This document shows positions 1,566 through 51,471 of a DNA stretch of 64,000 nucleotides, piece by piece (positions within the stretch are counted from its first letter, which is position 1; every line of letters begins with the position of its first letter). The stretch is taken from the NCBI RefSeq assembly GCF_030384885.1, contig NZ_CP128615.1; one strand, given 5' to 3'. Both the position numbers and the translations under genes were made by a program. The notes beneath the pieces were generated by a model, which was given only the letters and a program-made list of their open reading frames with translations, had not been told where the DNA came from and did no database searches. Origin of the DNA: Escherichia coli (lineage in GTDB: Bacteria; Pseudomonadota; Gammaproteobacteria; Enterobacterales; Enterobacteriaceae).

Positions 1566-2572
1566 TATTTGCGGTTGCCGGCTCGGGCAAGACCACGCTG
1601 CTGATACAGCGGTTGAGTGAGGACCGGCGGACGCTGATCCTGACCTTCACCGTGAATAATGAAGCGCATCTCCGGGCGCAGATTATCAGACGTTTTGGCT
1701 TTATCCCGGACGGGATCAGGGTGATGACCTGGTTTGAGTTTCTGCACGGTTTTTGCTTCAGGCCTTTCCTGCAGGAGCAGCTGGCATCGCGTGGGCTGAG
1801 CTTCGACCAGCCCCCACCCAGAATACCGCGCACGAATGCCCGGCATTATCAGGATCCCGCCGGACGGCTGTATCACCGGAGGCTCGCACACTTACTCACA
1901 GCCCGGGGGCTGCTGCCAGATATCCGTACCCGGCTTGCCCGTTACTACGATGAACTGCTTGTCGATGAAGTCCAGGACTTTGCCGGACATGACTTTAATT
2001 TTCTGCTGGAGCTCTGCCGCGCGGAAATCACTGTGCTCTGTTGCGGCGATTTTTATCAACATACCTTTGATACAAGCCATGACGGCAACGTTAATTCAAC
2101 GCTGCACGATGACATTACGCGATATGAGGCCCGCTTCGACGCAGCAGGTTTCACGGTTGACCGGGACACGCTCAACCGGACATGGCGTTGCTCAGCTTCA
2201 GTGTGCGAGTTTATCACCGGACAACTGAACATCCGTATCGCTGCCCATGGGATACATGCCACCCTGATTGAAACGATCACAGATGCAGAGCGCACAGCCA
2301 CCCTGCACGCCGATAATACGGTGATTAAGCTCTTCTATCGTGAACATCACCGTTACGGCTGCTATTCCATGAACTGGGGCGTCAGTAAAGGGCTCGACCA
2401 CTTTCAGGATGTCTGCATTGTGATGGGATCTTCCCACTGGAAGCTTCTGACCCGTCAGGAACTGGCAGCCCTTCCACCGTCGTCCCGTAACAGGCTGTAC
2501 GTGGCATGCTCACGGGCGCGCGGCAACATTTATTTTGTTCCCGAAATTCATCTGCGCCGATTCCGGAACTGA
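1550..2572 (+). CDS. compact UvrD/Rep-like SF1 helicase (GajB-like partner of the OLD nuclease)
   Basis: 340-aa ORF; AGSGKTT Walker A, DEVQDF motif II, YVACSRARG C-terminal motif; 16-bp overlap with upstream gene. Confidence 0.7.
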   Translation: MDKRVIFAVAGSGKTTLLIQRLSEDRRTLILTFTVNNEAHLRAQIIRRFGFIPDGIRVMTWFEFLHGFCFRPFLQEQLASRGLSFDQPPPRIPRTNARHYQDPAGRLYHRRLAHLLTARGLLPDIRTRLARYYDELLVDEVQDFAGHDFNFLLELCRAEITVLCCGDFYQHTFDTSHDGNVNSTLHDDITRYEARFDAAGFTVDRDTLNRTWRCSASVCEFITGQLNIRIAAHGIHATLIETITDAERTATLHADNTVIKLFYREHHRYGCYSMNWGVSKGLDHFQDVCIVMGSSHWKLLTRQELAALPPSSRNRLYVACSRARGNIYFVPEIHLRRFRN

Positions 2573-2699
2573 GTCAGCTGCTTCTCAGTCGGGCACAATT
2601 CAGAAATAAAGCTGTATGGCCAACGATGTCACTTCAGGCTGGAAAAGTGCGGATCCGGTTTTGCCTTTTTTCGGATCTGAGCGGGAAAAGTGAGAAACC

Positions 2700-2861
2700 A
2701 ACATAGGTGTAACATATCCATATGCCGGGCATCTGCATAGGCAAAGCATACGCATATACCTACCATCTGCATATGTAACACCTATACAAGCCGGGCTTGC
2801 AGGCATATACTTCACCTATGCGGGAATACTCCCTGGCACACTCAGCATATGAGGAAAAACC
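2700..2861 (+). promoter_or_regulatory. putative vagCD promoter/operator (inverted repeat ATAGGTGT/ACACCTAT, CATCTGCATA direct repeats)
   Basis: repeat-rich region immediately upstream of vagC; a related repeat-rich region precedes the second vagC copy at 58860-59026. Confidence 0.4.
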
Positions 2862-3092
2862 ATGCGCACAGTTTCGATATTTAAAAACGGCAATAACCGC
2901 GCCATCCGTCTGCCCCGGGACCTGGATTTTGATGGCGTCAGCGAGCTGGAGATCGTCCGGGAAGGGGACAGCATCATTCTGCGTCCCGTCCGGCCGACCT
3001 GGGGCTCGTTCGCGCAGCTGGACAGGGCCGATCCGGACTTTATGGCGGAGCGTGAGGATGTGGTCAGCGATGAAGGACGCTTTGAGCCATGA
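2862..3092 (+). CDS. vagC: VagC/VapB-type antitoxin (AbrB/SpoVT fold)
   Basis: 76-aa ORF MRTVSIFKNGNNRAIRLPRDL...; 4-bp overlap with downstream PIN toxin. Confidence 0.9.
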   Translation: MRTVSIFKNGNNRAIRLPRDLDFDGVSELEIVREGDSIILRPVRPTWGSFAQLDRADPDFMAEREDVVSDEGRFEP

Positions 3093-3505
3093 AGAAAACC
3101 TGGATGCTCGACACCAACATCTGCTCGTTCATCATGCGCGAGCAGCCGGCAGCGGTGCTGAAGCGCCTGGAGCAGGCGGTGCTGCGCGGTGATCGCATTG
3201 TGGTCTCGGCCGTGACGTATGCCGAGATGCGCTTCGGCGCCACCGGCCCGAAGGCCTCGCCGCGCCATATTCAGCTGGTCGACGCGTTCTGCGCGCGCCT
3301 CGATGCCGTCCTGCCCTGGGACCGCGCCGCGGTGGACGCCACGACGGACATCCGGGTGGCGCTGCGCCTAGCCGGGACGCCGATCGGCCCGAATGACACG
3401 GCCATTGCCGGGCACGCCATCGCGGCGGGCGCCATCCTGGTGACGAACAATGTGAGAGAGTTTGCGCGGGTCCCGGGCCTGGTGCTGGAAGACTGGGTGA
3501 AATAA
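3089..3505 (+). CDS. vagD: VagD/VapC PIN-domain toxin
   Basis: 138-aa ORF MKKTWMLDTNICSFIM... with PIN acidic residues; overlaps vagC stop. Confidence 0.9.
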   Translation: MKKTWMLDTNICSFIMREQPAAVLKRLEQAVLRGDRIVVSAVTYAEMRFGATGPKASPRHIQLVDAFCARLDAVLPWDRAAVDATTDIRVALRLAGTPIGPNDTAIAGHAIAAGAILVTNNVREFARVPGLVLEDWVK

Positions 3506-3547
3506 TCCCGTAATAATTTCCGTGACGGAGACGACAGACATGAATGG

Positions 3548-3608
3548 GCTTTGTTGAATAAATCGAACTTTTGCTGAGTTGAAGGATCAGATCACGCATC
3601 CTCCCGAC
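3548..3608 (+). mobile_element. IS903-like (IS5 family) terminal fragment including IR GGCTTTGTTGAATAAATC
   Basis: matches the first ~61 bp of the intact IS903-like copy at 23903; homology stops where the IS3-family element begins. Confidence 0.65.
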
Positions 3609-3708
3609 TGGATTTGCCCCTATATTTCCAGACACCTGTTATCACTTAATGGAGTGACCCCGAGCCCGTAGACAAATCTGCCCTATAGTTTGAGCATAGG
3701 AGGAGTCT

Positions 3709-3993
3709 ATGGGCACATCACGTTTTACCCCTGAATTTAAGGAAGAGGCCGTCCGCCAGATCACCGAGCGGGGCTATTCTATTGCTGAAGTATCTGAACG
3801 GCTCGGCGTGTCGGCGCACAGCCTATATAAATGGCTCCGGGCTGTTAAGCCTGACAACAGTGGACAGCAGGCACAGGATTTACTGGATGCCAGAACAGAA
3901 ATTCTCAGGCTGAAAGCACAGCTTAAACGCACTGAGGAAGAGCGGGATATTCTGAAAAAGGCAGCGCGGTACTTTGCAAGGGAGCCCGACTGA
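3709..3993 (+). CDS. IS3-family transposase OrfA (HTH)
   Basis: 94-aa ORF with HTH (YSIAEVSERLGVSAHSLYKW) and leucine-zipper-like C-terminus. Confidence 0.85.
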   Translation: MGTSRFTPEFKEEAVRQITERGYSIAEVSERLGVSAHSLYKWLRAVKPDNSGQQAQDLLDARTEILRLKAQLKRTEEERDILKKAARYFAREPD

Positions 3994-4567
3994 AGTATCG
4001 CTTTATCAACGATCACCGTGAAATCTGGTCGATCGTTACAATGTGTCGGGTCCTTAAGGTTGCCCGTGCCGGATTTTATGTCTGGCTCCATAACCCTGTA
4101 TCTGCCGGAGAAAAGGATAACCAGCGACTGCTGGAACTCATCCGCGACTCCTATACGCTGAGTGGTGGAGTTTACGGTTATCGCAGGGTTCATGGCGATC
4201 TTCGCGAAATTGGCGAAGTGTGCAGCAGAAACCGGGTTGCCAAAATCATGAGGAAAAACAGGATTCAGGCTATACATGGTTATAAAGTGCCACGCGGGAG
4301 CCGGGGACGACCGTCACTGATAGCGCCTAATCACGTGCGGCGTGAATTTACTGTAGTGAAGCCCAATCAGGTGTGGGTCACCGACATCACCTACATCCGC
4401 ACCTGGCAGGGCTGGCTGTACCTGGCAGTGGTTATCGATCTTTTTGCCCGTAATGTGGTGGGCTGGTCGATGAAGCCGACACTGTCGCGCGAGCTGGCAC
4501 TGGATGCGCTGCTGATGGCGGTCTGGCGACGTAAACCTGAAGAAAACGTCATTGTGCACAGCGATAG

Positions 4568-25112: not shown

Positions 25113-25376
25113 ATGAAGAAGCGTTTTTCCGACGAACAGATCATCAGTATTCTCCGCGAAGCCGAAGCTGGGGTACCCGCCCGTGAACTCTGCCGCAAGC
25201 ATGCCATTTCCGATGCCACGTTTTACACCTGGCGTAAGAAGTATGGCGGTATGGAGGTGCCTGAAGTTAAGCGCCTGAAGTCGCTTGAGGAAGAGAACGC
25301 CAGACTCAAGAAGCTGCTTGCCGAAGCCATGCTGGATAAAGAGGCGCTTCAGGTGGCTCTTGGGCGAAAGTACTGA
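25113..25376 (+). CDS. IS3-family transposase OrfA
   Basis: 87-aa ORF MKKRFSDEQIISILREAEAGVPARELCRKHAISDATFYTWRKKYGG... Confidence 0.85.
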   Translation: MKKRFSDEQIISILREAEAGVPARELCRKHAISDATFYTWRKKYGGMEVPEVKRLKSLEEENARLKKLLAEAMLDKEALQVALGRKY

Positions 25377-25399
25377 CGACAGACCAGAAGCGGGAAGCC

Positions 25400-25624
25400 G
25401 TGATGCTGATGTGTGATGCGACCGGTCTGTCGCAACGTCGTGCCTGCAGGCTTACAGGTTTGTCCCTGTCGACCTGCCGCTATGAGGCTCACCGTCCGGC
25501 TGCTGATGCGCATTTATCAGGGCGCATCACTGAGCTGGCACTGGAGCGCAGGCGTTTTGGCTACCGTCGTATTTGGCAATTGCTGCGCCGTGAAGGGCTT
25601 CATGTTAATCATAAGCGCGTGTAG
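25400..25624 (+). pseudogene. IS3-family transposase OrfB, N-terminal fragment only
   Basis: 74-aa ORF ending at the truncation point. Confidence 0.7.
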
Positions 25625-45597: not shown

Positions 45598-46099
45598 GTC
45601 TGTGTTGTAAAATGGCGCCGAAAGCCCGGCGTAGCCGGTTGCCGGGCTATAAATTCTGCCACCCTACCCCCTGCCCTGATTAGCCTTAACTCGCGAACAG
45701 CAATGAAGAAGTCAAAGTAATCCCTTTTAACCCCGGTGAGCGGGCTTTACGGCGTTTACGACGTAAAGGGCGTGATTTCCGGGGCCTAAGCGGCGGCAGC
45801 TTGCTGCTGACGCTTAGGGGGATGTTCATCAACTATTTCAGCGACACCAGGGAACTTAACACGGTAGCTGCAAAGCCCTAATCCCGCTCACCGCCACGCA
45901 GCTGCCGTACGTCCCCCACGGGGGTGCGCAGTGCTGCGCGCGGGAACGGCGGCCCGTCTGCGGGACGCGGCGCCGTACTGCGCGTTAGCGGCCGCACGCG
46001 GCCGGTTACGGGGGACACTCCGCCATACGACCAGCGACCCGCTGAGCTGCACAATCCACAGATAACACAAGCTACATACATGTCGATATGGGAATCGGC

Positions 46100-46660
46100 C
46101 CACCTTGCCGGGCGCCGGTGCCGTGTGGAAATCCGCCCACCTTGCCGCGCGCCGGTGCCGTGTGGGAATCCGCCCACCTTGCCGCGCGCCGGTGCCGTGT
46201 GGGAATCCGCCCACCTTGCCGGGCGCCGGTGCTGTGTGGAAATCCGCCCACCTTACCGGGCGCCGGTGCTGTGTGGAAATCCGCCCATCTTGCCGGGCGC
46301 CGGTGCCGTGTGGGAATCCGCCCACCTTACCGGGCGCCGGTGCCGTGTGGGAATCCGCCCACCTTACCGGGCGCCGGTGCCGTGTGGGAATCCGCCCACC
46401 TTACCGGGCGCCGGTGCTGTGTGGAAATCCGCCCACCTTGCCGCGCGCCGGTGCCGTGTGGGAATCCGCCCACCTTGCCGCGCGCCGGTGCCGTGTGGGA
46501 ATCCGCCCACCTTGCCGGGCGCCGGTGCTGTGTGGAAATCCGCCCACCTTACCGGGCGCCGGTGCTGTGTGGAAATCCGCCCATCTTGCCGGGCGCCGGT
46601 GCCGTGTGGGAATCCGCCCACCTTACCGGGCGCCGGTGCTGTGTGGAAATCCGCCCATCT
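46100..46660. repeat. tandem array of about 15 copies of a 37-bp repeat (putative Rep_3 iterons)
   Basis: unit CTTGCCG(G/C)GCGCCGGTGC(C/T)GTGTGG(G/A)AATCCGCCCAC; lies downstream of the truncated repA fragment. Confidence 0.7.
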
Positions 46661-46708
46661 TCATGACAAAAATTTGTCAAATGACAGGCTCATGTGTGCT
46701 GATTTATG

Positions 46709-47011: not shown

Positions 47012-47026
47012 GGTAATGACTCCAAC

Positions 47027-47530
47027 TTACTGATAGTGTTTTATGTTCAGATAATGCCCGATGACTTTGTCATGCAGCGCCACCGATTTTGAGAACGACA
47101 GTGACTTCCTGCCCAGCCTTGCCAGATGCTGCCTCAGATTCTGGTTATGCCGCTCAATTCGCTGCGTATATCGCTTGCTGATAACGTGCAGTTCTCCCTT
47201 CAGGCGGGATTCATAAAGCGGCCAGCCATCCGTCATCCATACCACGACCTCAAAGGCCGACAGCAGGCCCGGAAGACGCTCCAGCGTGGCCAGAGTACGC
47301 TCACCAAAGACGCGTGCCACCACCGTCCTGCACATCCTGCCATAGGCGTAAAATAACCAGCGCTGACGTGATTTAGCCCCGACGTAGCCCCACTGTTCGT
47401 CCATTTCCGCGCAGACAATGACGTCACTGCCCGGTTGTATGCGTGAGGTTACCGACTGCGGTCTGAGTTTTTTAAGTGACGTAAAATCGTGTTGAGGCCA
47501 ACGCCCATAATGCGGGCGGTTGCCCGGCAT
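47027..47530 (-). CDS. insB: IS1 InsB
   Basis: 167-aa ORF. Confidence 0.85.
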
Positions 47531-47724
47531 CCAACGCCATTCATGGCCATATCAATGATTTTCTGGTGCGTACCGGGCTGAGAGGCGGTGTAAGTGAACT
47601 GTAGCTGCCATGTTTTACGGCAGTGAGAGCAGAGATAGCGCTGATGTCCGGCAGTACTTTTACCGTTACGCACCACGCCTTCAGTAGCTGAGCAGGAGGG
47701 ACAACTGATGGAGATGGAAGCCAC
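47449..47724 (-). CDS. insA: IS1 InsA
   Basis: 91-aa [14 protein letters not shown]... Confidence 0.85.
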
Positions 47725-47789
47725 TGGAGCACCTCAAAGACACCATCGTACACTAAATCAGTAAGTTGGCACCATTATCCGGCAGGCGA

Positions 47790-49700
47790 TCTGGATTATC
47801 GTCACGCTGTTAAATATGTCGCGGTAGGGATACCCGTTACCGGATACCCCCCGCACAGATCCCGGCGTGCGCGATTTACGCACCGGGCTCCTGCCTCGGG
47901 TGTCTGGCGGTGAACCGCTCCACAGGCCATGGATGAAGAACCCGAACCCTTGGTAGCCATGCGGCTGCCAGTTTGTTTGCTTTCGTCCAGGTCGTATCAT
48001 CCTTCTGGCTCCTGCGCCTGAGCGCCCGGCGCCAGAGGTTTGTTACGTGTGTCCTGAACTTCTGCATGGTGGGGAAGTTGCCCGGTACCGAGTGATAGTT
48101 CAGGTATCCCTGAACCACTCTCCTGAGCCATTTTCCCTGTTCGGGGATTGAGTAATGCCAGCGCCTTCGCAGACCGTCTTTGATGGCTTTCAGAGTTGCC
48201 GTCATCCGATCCCGGCGGGTCTTTCGTATCAGCATGAACCTGCCGTTGCGATCTTTCCCGCTGATGTGCGTGAACCCGAGGAAGTTGAACGTTTCTGGTT
48301 TGCCTTTTCCCCTGATGGCACGGTTTTCGGCAGCGAAGCGGCCGAACTCCATCAGACGGGTTTTCTCCGGGTGAACCGTGAGTCCGAACTCCCTCAGTCT
48401 GCGCTGCATGGCTATACGGAAGCGCCGGGCATCGTATCGTTTGTCGAACCCGATGACGATGTCATCGGCGTATCTGACCATTACCACATTGCCTGTGGCA
48501 TAGCGACGTCGCCACTGATGCGCCCACAGATCGAAGACGTAGTGGAGGTATATGTTTGCCAGCAGCGGTGAGATGACCGCACCCTGTGGGGTGCCTTCCT
48601 CCGTTGCTCGCCATTGACCCTCCTCCAACGTCCCGGCTGTGAGCCACTTACGTATGAGCCTGATTACGCTCCGGTCGCCGATCCGATGCTCTGTGAACCT
48701 GATCAGCCATTCGTGGCTCACCCTGTCGAAGAACTGACTGATGTCGGCATCCAGTACCCAGTTTACGTTAGTGCGTACCAGCCCTGTGGCCAGTGCGTCC
48801 AGTGCATCGTGCTGGCTTCGCCCGGGTCTGAACCCGTATGAGAACCCCATAAAGTCGTTTTCATAGACTGCGTTCAGGATTTTCACCAGCGCATACTGGA
48901 CGATCTTGTCCTCCAGCGAGGCGATGCCGAGCGGGCGTTGTTTTCCATCCGCTTTTGGGATGTAGTGACGCCTGCCGGGCTGCGCCCTGTAGCTGCCCTA
49001 ATGTAGCCTCCGGTGCAGATCTGTTATGTTGTTCTTCATGTTTCCGGCGTAGTCCATCCACCTGATGCCATCCACTCCGGCGGCCGCTTTCCTGCTCAGG
49101 GAGAGGAATGCGGCTTCCAGTGCTTCGACTGTCAGCAGGTGGAACAATGCTGTAAACCGTTCTTTCTTCCGCTGCTTCGCAGCTTCCCGCACGCGTGACA
49201 GCCTCTGTGACATGCTTTCCCGGCTCTGTGTCCGGCGCATGTGTGGCTGTTCCGCGTTCCCCTTGGCCCCGCTCCTTCGCTCCACTGACTCCGCTCCTTT
49301 CGGGTTGTTCGCCTGCTTCGCCGCTACTATGAGCGAGTCCGACTTCTCCTCTCCGTACATCACCGGCTATGACTCCTCGTCTTCCCGGTGCGGGCCGTCT
49401 CCGACACTGGCAGATGGTCAGAGGGGAGATCTCCCGGTTCCCGCGTAGAGATCGTATTGACATGCCAGGGTCTCAGACCCCGCCGGGTCCATGTGGCACT
49501 CGCAGTATCGCACCCTATGATGTTGCCTTCCGTTAACAGTACAACGTCGGCACCCGGTAATTTAATATACATTTCGTGGCTCAATGGCTGGCCTGTCAAC
49601 ACCCCTGTCAACGCTTCGCCCCATACCTCGCGGTATGCAACGCATGACTCGGGGACCTTGTGGATTGCTGGTCCTTCAATGGTCGGGGACTTTCACCCCT
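47790..49700 (-). mobile_element. bacterial group II intron (boundaries approximate)
   Basis: intron-encoded RT/maturase ORF; domain V-like hairpin in the reverse complement of 47845-47880; 5' boundary not pinned. Confidence 0.6.
47876..49363 (-). pseudogene. group II intron reverse transcriptase/maturase, interrupted by one in-frame TAG
   Basis: two same-frame ORFs (48998-49363 and 47876-48886) separated by a TAG at 48998-49000; RT motifs ...GVDGIRWMDY..., ...FSYGFRPGRSQHDAL..., ...YADDIVIG... Confidence 0.75.
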
Positions 49701-49727
49701 TGATCTCTACCGGTCTCCCGGTGAACA

Positions 49728-49743
49728 CTGTATGTATAACCAG
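49728..49743 (+). promoter_or_regulatory. LexA (SOS) box upstream of umuD
   Basis: CTGTATGTATAACCAG (CTGT-N8-CCAG, one mismatch to the CTG-N10-CAG consensus) 26 bp upstream of the umuD start. Confidence 0.6.
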
Positions 49744-49768
49744 TAAAATTAGAGTGTCAGGAGGAAAG

Positions 49769-50200
49769 ATGAAACTACAACTTTTCAGCACCGGGAAAGA
49801 ACTCCCGCCACAGGCCCATCCATTGTTTGCCGATCTGGCCAGCTGCGGTTTTCCCAGCCCTGCTGCTGACTATGTCGAGTCCGATCTGGATCTCCATGAT
49901 TACTGCATACGGCATCCGAGCGCGACGTACTACCTGCGTGCCAGCGGAGACAGCATGGCCGACGGCAGTCTGTACAATGGCGATCTGCTGGTTGTGGACA
50001 GTGCTGAAAAGCCGCGGCACGGCGATATCGTTGTCGCCAGCATGCAGGGGGAGTTTACGGTGAAACGGCTTCTGCTGACGCCGCGACTGACGCTGCAGCC
50101 CATGAATGCCTCCTGGTCGCCGATTTATCCTGATCCCGACGAGCTGGATATCTTTGGCGTCGTCACGCATATCATCCACCGCCCGAGGGAGATGTACTGA
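49769..50200 (+). CDS. umuD: UmuD-like SOS mutagenesis protein (LexA-like peptidase S24)
   Basis: 143 aa from [10 protein letters not shown]... with RBS AGGAGG; Ser-Lys dyad region (SGDSM...K); the ORF-track start at 49388 is an upstream extension. Confidence 0.85.
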
Positions 50201-51471
50201 TGTTTGCCCTGGCCGATGTGAACAGCTTCTATGCCAGCTGTGAACGTGTTTTCCGCCCGGATTTGAAAGGAAAGCCGATAGTCGTCCTGAGCAACAACGA
50301 CGGGAATGTAATCGCTCGCAGTGCCGAGGCGAAGCCCTGGATCAAAATGGAAACTCCGTGGTTTCAGATAAAAAACGAAAGATACCCGGAAAAAATATAT
50401 GCGTTTTCAAGTAACTATGAACTTTATGCCTCGATGTTGGCGCGCGTGATGAACAGCCTGGAGGAACTGGCCCCCAGAGTGGAACAGTATTCAATTGATG
50501 AGATGTTCCTCGATTTGACCGGCGTGGAGCACTGTATGGAGCTTGAGGACTTCGGCCGGCAGCTGCGTCAGCACGTGTATGACTGTACCCACCTGACCAT
50601 TGGCGTGGGCGCCGGACCAACGAAGACCCTCGCAAAATCAGCCCAGTGGGCCTCAAAAGAGTGGAAACAGTTTCGTGGCGTACTTGCTCTGACCAGGGGA
50701 AATCCGCAGAGAACGCGGAAACTGCTTTCACTGCAGCCGGTTGAAGAAATCTGGGGGGTGGGTAACCGTATTGCACGCAAGCTGAATGTACTGGGCATTA
50801 AGACCGCGCTCGATCTCGCCCTGACGAACCCGGCCTTCATCCGCAAAAATTTTTCTGTGGTCCTTGAGCGAACGGTACGGGAACTGAACGGGGAAAGCTG
50901 CCTTTCGCTTGAGGAAGCCCCTCCGACGAAACAGCAAATTGTCTGCAGCCGCAGTTTTGGCGTGAAGATCACGGAGTACGAGTCACTCCGTCAGGCTATC
51001 TGTCAGCACGCAGAGCGGGCCTCTGAAAAACTGCGTAAAGAGCACCAGTATTGCCGGCATATTTCCGTTTTCATCAAAACGTCTCCGTTCGCCATTAAAG
51101 AGCCTTACTACGGCAACGTGGCTACGGAAAAACTTCTTACACCCACTCAGGACACCAGGGACATCATTGCAGCCGCTACAACGGCTCTGGAGCGTATCTG
51201 GAGGGATGGGCACCGGTATGCCAAAGCCGGAGTTATGCTGAATGACTTCACCGGCTCCGGCGTTTCGCAGCTGCAGCTGTTCGACGAACGCCCGCCACGC
51301 CCTTACAGTGCTGAGCTGATGAAGGTTCTGGACGGGATCAACAACTCAGGGCTGGGTAAAGTATGGTTTGCGGGGCGGGGTATTGCCCCGGAATGGCAGA
51401 TGAAACGGGAGATGCTTTCTCCTGCTTATACGACACGATGGTCAGATATTCCTTCAGCGAAACTGGCGTAA
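50200..51471 (+). CDS. umuC: UmuC-like Y-family DNA polymerase V catalytic subunit
   Basis: 423-aa [44 protein letters not shown]... Confidence 0.9.

Follow-up and report, generated by a model that had tools for sequence, protein, structure and literature searches.

A decayed group II intron at a plasmid umuD operator and the probable homing of its lineage to LexA boxes

Known homing targets of group II introns are unique genes, terminators and the attC sites of integrons. A 64,000-nt stretch of the Escherichia coli contig NZ_CP128615.1 (assembly GCF_030384885.1), hereafter the window, in whose positions all coordinates are given, carries a group II intron next to the SOS operon umuDC. Judging from sequence comparison, this element is very probably a complete but dead copy of a mobile intron whose lineage homes to the LexA operator (TACTG-N10-CAGTA), known as the LexA box. 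The broken pseudogene within it was already known, and homing to LexA boxes is new as far as the literature found shows.

In the mechanism proposed here, an active copy would have reverse-spliced exactly after the ...ACAGT of a plasmid umuD box, on the strand opposite umuD, an orientation made possible by the palindromic nature of the box. The box would be read largely by the intron RNA: exon-binding site 1 (EBS1, ACUGU) would pair with the right half-site ACAGU, and a further stretch, UAUAU, is the likely partner of the AT-rich centre. Reading of the left half-site, CTG at -17 to -15, probably falls to the intron protein. Decay after insertion would have turned CAG into TAG in the reverse transcriptase and GUGCG into GUUCA at the 5' splice site, and the decayed form would then have been carried in IncR-type plasmid backbones as the gene called retA or ltrA. 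The insertion would also have replaced the -35 region of umuDC, where two substitutions improve a TGAACA hexamer, perhaps through selection for umuDC expression.

Insertion at LexA boxes

The intron boundaries were set by comparing an empty site in an IncR-type plasmid (L006) with filled sites, and this comparison leaves the ends unambiguous: the 5' exon finishes in ...ACAGT and the 3' exon starts with ATATTT.... The complete intron spans 47818-49726 on the minus strand, 1909 nt from its GUUCACC start to its CCGCGAC end, and an alignment of full-length copies gives intact copies the same length. Copies from other contexts lose their match to the window near 47816. An earlier, sequence-only reading of this DNA had drawn the element at 47790-49700, with its 5' end about 30 bp from the LexA box; both placements have had to be revised. 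The intron abuts the box. Its first base (49726) falls on position 1 of the 20-mer umuD box cACTGTATGTATAACCAGTA (49726-49745, plus strand), so that this position now holds the complement of intron base 1, and the box lies 23 bp upstream of the umuD start codon. The empty site carries the whole umuD box, TACTGTATGCATAACCAGTA.

A 5' intron pattern scanned over one genome per species and a metagenome collection yielded 84 distinct 30-nt upstream flanks, drawn from Enterobacterales, Burkholderia, Paraburkholderia and metagenomes. An exact CTG-N10-CAGT stands directly before the GTGCGCC intron start in 73 of the 84, which bears out the earlier suggestion that the intron marks a favoured landing site. 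Conservation of the target is high at -19 to -10 and at -7 to -1, and exon position +1 is A in 15 of 17 sites. The sites adjoin SOS genes (umuD, tisB/istR, uvrD, imuA/imuB-like genes and SRAP). By crude sequence proxies, about 35 introns lie sense and about 21 antisense to the SOS gene, and the occurrence of both orientations fits a palindromic target.

The same arrangement is seen on chromosomes. Three E. coli genomes carry intact copies directly after a LexA box, at tisB/istR, at the chromosomal umuD and in an unannotated region of strain EC29. When the 1909 nt are deleted from one filled locus (L004), the result is an uninterrupted umuD promoter, present in 5323 of 5426 complete E. coli genomes; the same deletion from another (L003) restores an uninterrupted tisB/istR region, present in 4150 of the 5426. 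The best matches of both rejoined flanks are 100% identical to the uninterrupted sites. Exact empty sites thus exist at three loci (the IncR-type plasmid, umuD and tisB/istR), and insertion is precise and without target duplication. From these comparisons, the LexA box is in all likelihood the homing site of the intron family. Elsewhere, the chromosome of E. coli O68:H12 strain 97.3 (NZ_CP061758.1) contains six intron matches, one of them the copy at tisB/istR.

More distant relatives show a similar distribution. Proteins 64-81% identical to that of the window are common in Ralstonia, Paraburkholderia, Duganella, Serratia and a Herbaspirillum-like genome, and most of these relatives with readable flanks also sit at LexA boxes, with uvrD, imuA/imuB-like genes and SRAP as neighbours. 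Relatives at 69-74% protein identity likewise target LexA boxes. A further copy, of 65% protein identity (L137, at about 880-935), lacks its first ~72 nt, yet stands immediately downstream of ...GTATATTTATACAGTA, so that a LexA-box-like site is here occupied by a copy with a 5' deletion.

Structure of the intron

The ribozyme core, domains I to IV, lies at 49468-49693 on the minus strand, where the Rfam model group-II-D1D4-6 (RF02005) matches over its full length (model positions 1-225) at 186.6 bits (E 1e-54; gathering score 49). The strand of this match means that the intron reads from right to left in the window. Domain V (47858-47890, minus strand) has in its predicted fold an AGC triad, an AC bulge and a loop that contains the UAA stop of the intron protein. 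Counts over the family give 12 pairs, 100% paired, in a nearly invariant sequence, the triad G standing opposite A, not U, throughout. Domain VI (47821-47854, minus strand) is capped by a GUAA loop, and its A at 47825, 7 nt from the 3' end, is bulged; 98.6% of its cells are paired, and in six pairs both sides have changed in a compensatory manner. Together the two domains occupy the last 73 nt. Over 10 family sequences 99.2% of their cells pair, a share that drops to 46.5% or less once the partner columns are shifted, and a minimum-energy fold prediction yields both hairpins. The intron ends in ...GAC, with the expected AY 3' end and bulged branch-point A. Outside its reading frame the ribozyme is small, at about 420 nt.

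The reverse transcriptase/maturase frame (47876-49363, minus strand; 495 codons) lies within domain IV, as in other group II introns. Pfam finds RVT_1 only (residues 135-365, E 5e-47) and no endonuclease domain. The best matches in the Protein Data Bank (PDB) are group II intron reverse transcriptases, headed by that of GsI-IIC (6ar1, E 8e-43). The core, domains V and VI and the reverse transcriptase agree in identifying the element as a group II intron, as had been proposed from its letters. The domain V-like hairpin reported at the IS1 junction is likewise present, together with domain VI, but these hairpins lie 41-110 bp away from IS1.

Target recognition by the intron RNA

The predicted fold places EBS1, ACUGU (49536-49540, minus strand), in the loop of a domain I hairpin at 49531-49546. 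Its partner ACAGU closes the exon and makes up the right half of the LexA box. Between EBS1 and the final five exon bases, five of five pairs form in 77 of the 84 sites and four of five in the other 7. Moreover, the loop changes together with the exon end across lineages. The window type combines ACUGU with ACAGU, whereas a Paraburkholderia intron (L144) combines CCUGU with ACAGG. In a Ralstonia type (L127), UACUG faces CAGUA and insertion occurs one base further along; this type also occupies two ectopic sites, with exon ends CGGUA and CAGUA. Lastly, a 65% identical relative (L138) pairs UCCGCA with UGCGGA outside a LexA box. EBS1 starts at the same loop position in all lineages compared. This covariation in four lineages identifies EBS1 and indicates that the right half-site is read by RNA.

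One ectopic copy of the Ralstonia lineage (L131, at about 1135) lies between two gene calls that both match T4SS-DNA_transf, so that the insertion probably split a gene for a type IV secretion system (T4SS) coupling protein. Its exon end is CCGGTA, and pairing with EBS1 alone is evident there.

For the centre of the box, the candidate EBS2 is UAUAU (49565-49569, minus strand), in a single-stranded stretch, which probably pairs with AUAUA at -13 to -9. Target position -12 is T in 83 of 84 sites, -11 is A in 77 and G in 7, and -10 is T in 82 of 84, a constancy that in our judgement exceeds what a LexA box is expected to require. Every base seen at -11 is able to pair with U, and two lineages with UUUAU as their candidate EBS2 occupy boxes reading AUAAA. 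As to the left half-site, 87% of sites have CTG at -17 to -15, and no convincing RNA pairing accounts for it; by analogy with other group II introns it is probably read by the intron protein.

Two other pairings were considered and dropped. A pair of ACAG motifs in domain I, taken as EBS2, would form only 4 pairs with the left half-site CTGT (judged by eye). A delta-delta' contact between the U located 5' of EBS1 and exon position +1 would suit the window type (A in 15 and G in 2 of 17 sites), and failed in Ralstonia, where +1 is T in six of six.

An alternative mode of recognition deserves attention, namely that the palindromic box folds as a hairpin in single-stranded DNA and that its shape rather than its sequence is recognized, as in group IIC introns. 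The endonuclease-less protein, the IIC reverse transcriptase as the best solved relative, the ribozyme of about 420 nt and the palindromic target are all in keeping with this idea. On the other hand, typical boxes fold at -1.8 to -4 kcal/mol, no clear gain over shuffled sequence, the would-be stem arm is itself paired and covarying with EBS1, and sites that lack the left arm are still used. The weakness of the target hairpins makes recognition of a hairpin unlikely for most sites, and overall we regard this alternative as unlikely, though it stands best among those considered. Recognition of the box through pairing with the intron RNA is preferred.

Decay of the window copy

In the window, the reverse transcriptase frame is a pseudogene, as seen from the open reading frames, Pfam and the RefSeq label "internal stop". 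Its sole internal stop is the TAG at 48998-49000 (minus strand; ...DLHRRLH*GSYRAQ...), in place of codon 122, and 17 of the 18 other distinct full-length copies have CAG (Gln) at this position. The supposition that a sense codon had been hit was therefore sound: a C-to-T point mutation of CAG produced the stop. The protein is cut at residue 121 of 495, upstream of RVT_1, so that all catalytic parts are lost and the reverse transcriptase is probably inactive, as had also been suggested. The broken frame as first described is real and already on record, since in RefSeq identical DNA, both in a plasmid and in a chromosome-integrated copy, is labelled a pseudogene of ltrA that contains an internal stop.

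As only one base interrupts a frame that is open elsewhere, the TAG might instead be a sequencing error, or a codon that is read through to give a functional enzyme. Both are highly improbable: 382 plasmid records match the window junction at 99% identity or more, RefSeq flags "internal stop" in each of the two identical copies that were examined, the stop precedes the whole reverse transcriptase domain, and the 5' splice site is also damaged. At this splice site (49722-49726, minus strand) the family pentamer GUGCG has become GUUCA through the changes G3>U and G5>A. Every one of the 18 other distinct full-length copies has G at positions 3 and 5, and the relatives likewise start with GUGCG, so the conserved 5' end GUGYG is kept by the family and lost in the window copy.

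The first five bases of group II ribozymes are required for catalysis, and with a GUUCA start the window copy is unlikely to splice. The altered 5' end and the TAG together would make it doubly dead. Just six bases, including intron positions 3, 5 and 727, separate it from the intact copies closest to it; among these six, G3>U, G5>A and the C>T that creates the TAG are unique or nearly unique to the window lineage. Besides the 382 plasmid records with the junction of the window, 1280 have one with an unmutated 5' end, at this umuD box or a close relative of it.

Other plasmid copies show damage of their own. In the Klebsiella pneumoniae plasmid pF726925-1 (L149), the intron at the same umuD site retains both its 5' end and CAG but has gained one nucleotide near intron position 1312, and this separate frameshift indicates that decay occurred more than once. 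In the E. coli plasmids pBY63-1 and pYUXYEH3934-1 (L115 and L116, at about 2460-4450), the LexA box next to the 5' end of the intron belongs to another plasmid umuD, whereas on the 3' side the IncR flank and IS1 follow; one of these copies has TAG and the other CAG. Such hybrids look like products of homologous recombination between two intron copies.

The umuDC promoter

The hit operator belongs to umuD (49769-50200) and umuC (50200-51471), both on the plus strand according to the open reading frames and to RefSeq annotation of identical DNA. The intron is antisense to umuD and has replaced all DNA on the upstream side of the box, and with it the -35 position for the hexamer TAAAAT (49744-49749). 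Because this region was displaced, an effect of the intron on umuDC expression, raised in the earlier reading, is plausible. A promoter-like TGAACA-16 nt-TAAAAT is now found at 49722-49749 (plus strand), and owes its first hexamer to the two mutated intron bases. It scores 9 of 12 in a promoter scan in which 0.1 such sites are expected in shuffled sequence; by the same scan rule, the empty site has no promoter-like site. Junctions of intact introns read CGCACA where the window has TGAACA, so the substitutions that destroy the splice site also shift the hexamer towards the -35 consensus. Selection of these two changes to keep umuDC expressed is possible, and we give it rather less weight than its opposite.

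Surroundings in the window

On its 3' side the intron is followed by 37 bp (47781-47817) that are native to the plasmid. They originally flanked the umuD box upstream, now form the 3' exon side, and are identical to the DNA adjoining the box at the empty site and to the same flank in pF726925-1. Beyond them lies an IS1-like element (47012-47780, minus strand) with terminal repeats, IS1X3 in RefSeq, which is outside the intron and cuts a rep gene on its other side. Truncation of the intron by IS1 was considered and rejected, as intact copies and the empty site place the 3' end at 47818; IS1 is a separate, later neighbour. On identical DNA, RefSeq gives the order parAB-umuDC-ltrA-IS1-truncated rep.

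Several other features were noted. Beside the rep remnant cut by IS1, 46089-46661 holds 15.5 tandem copies of a 37-bp unit (93% matches), probably the iterons of a plasmid origin. A full-length match to RF00383, the IS1222 ribosomal frameshift element (25343-25460, 152 bits), marks an insertion sequence of the IS3 family. In otherwise plasmid-like DNA, 61608-61699 matches the E. coli small RNA UptR (RF02568, 123 bits; gathering score 100). Outside the window, E. coli CUWW06 (L002) has a whole IncR segment in its chromosome next to actP, in the order parA remnant-parB-umuDC-dead intron-IS1-rep remnant.

Weighing the evidence

More than 3500 plasmids contain nearly identical intron DNA and many of them share the parAB-umuDC module, as would be expected if the intron had landed once, by chance, next to umuD and the link to LexA merely reflected one widely spread plasmid module. 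This is very hard to reconcile with 84 different flanks beside umuD, tisB, uvrD, imuAB, SRAP and other genes, with flanks that span Enterobacterales, Burkholderia, Ralstonia, Duganella and a Herbaspirillum-like genome, or with the empty sites at three loci. That the box, which is always immediately 5' of the intron, is cargo or the promoter/operator of the mobile unit itself can be dismissed as the least credible of the alternatives, because the box spacer varies by site and equals that of the native box at empty sites, removal of 1909 nt restores native regions, a canonical GUGCG start follows the box and no box is duplicated.

Several points nevertheless weigh against homing to the LexA box as set out here. 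First, 11 of the 84 sites lack an exact CTG; several of these are near-boxes with GTG or ATG, and a few sites without the left half retain TATAT-N4-(A/T)CAGT. Recognition may thus depend on the left half less than the frequency of CTG would imply, and the pattern could owe something to selection acting after insertion. Second, the 84 flanks include orthologous umuD promoters of related species, so that independent insertions number fewer than 84. Third, the TA periodicity of the candidate EBS2 makes its register ambiguous, three registers being almost equally good, and the Paraburkholderia intron L144 fits the proposed pairing at four of five positions only. Fourth, the Rfam model Intron_gpII for domains V and VI (RF00029), a check suggested by the sequence-only reading, gives no match at E<=10 on 47600-50000, possibly because the triad G faces A instead of U; it is the fold and the pair counts that reveal these domains. 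Finally, the -35 idea draws on a consensus scan and two bases, and the same two changes are also expected from the neutral decay of a dead element.

Significance

If homing to the LexA box is correct, landing pads for this intron would exist on chromosomes, plasmids and prophages across Gamma- and Betaproteobacteria, beside damage-inducible genes, and an operator-homing lineage would represent a new kind of group II intron target. It would also explain the presence of a nearly identical intron in Klebsiella, E. coli, Pluralibacter, Burkholderia and Paraburkholderia. As each insertion splits the LexA box from one side of the promoter, strains that carry the intron may differ in the expression of umuDC, tisB, uvrD or imuAB, and hence in mutagenesis and persistence. 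The retA "backbone gene" of IncR plasmids would be the fossil of an insertion into a LexA box, and intron copies in different plasmids appear to act as recombination points, as in pBY63-1 and pYUXYEH3934-1. Furthermore, the rule given by EBS1 and the candidate EBS2 could serve the design of targetron-style tools.

Taken together, these observations suggest a broader picture that we offer tentatively, as somewhat short of an even bet: a widespread lineage may have evolved to home to an operator by RNA reading, dozens of conserved landing pads per genome may link the spread of the intron with SOS control, and two point mutations may have made the dead IncR copy part of the promoter of umuDC.

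Comparison with known group II introns

The literature found contains no report of a group II intron that targets LexA boxes, most subscription-journal texts and the curated intron database being outside its scope. In reviews of IncR plasmids, retA appears among the backbone genes, as the one for a group IIB intron reverse transcriptase. The retA/ltrA of IncR and IncFII(K) Klebsiella backbones is identical DNA in the same parAB-umuDC-ltrA-IS1-truncated rep order, and the texts found treat it as a backbone gene, leaving intron boundaries, mutated splice site and LexA-box target undescribed. As regards class, a ribozyme this small and a protein that lacks an endonuclease would suit C, E or F, whereas the IncR papers say IIB.

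RmInt1 (class D) and classes E and F resemble the window family in the absence of an endonuclease domain, in the placing of EBS1 and EBS2 within domain I and in the small size of the ribozyme, which in classes IIE and IIF measures 450-700 nt without the reading frame. In the window family the reading frame runs into the domain V loop, and its likeness to RmInt1 and classes E and F is one of description rather than of sequence comparison. Among the introns named in papers on endonuclease-less proteins or on classes E and F, none is from Klebsiella or Ralstonia.

A close parallel in targeting is offered by group IIC introns, which insert after terminators or in integron attC sites and share with the window family an endonuclease-less protein and a small ribozyme. 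In both cases, the target is a recurring palindromic regulatory motif and not a unique gene. Group IIC introns are recognized by a stable DNA stem-loop at the target, an intron-binding site 1 (IBS1) of 3-4 nt and no EBS2; here, the hairpins are weak, IBS1 is 5-6 nt long and there is a candidate EBS2 of uncertain register. Unlike group IIC introns, the window family targets a repressor operator, through an EBS1 of 5-6 nt whose pairing lies inside the arm of the palindrome, and combines a candidate EBS2 with weak DNA hairpins at its target.
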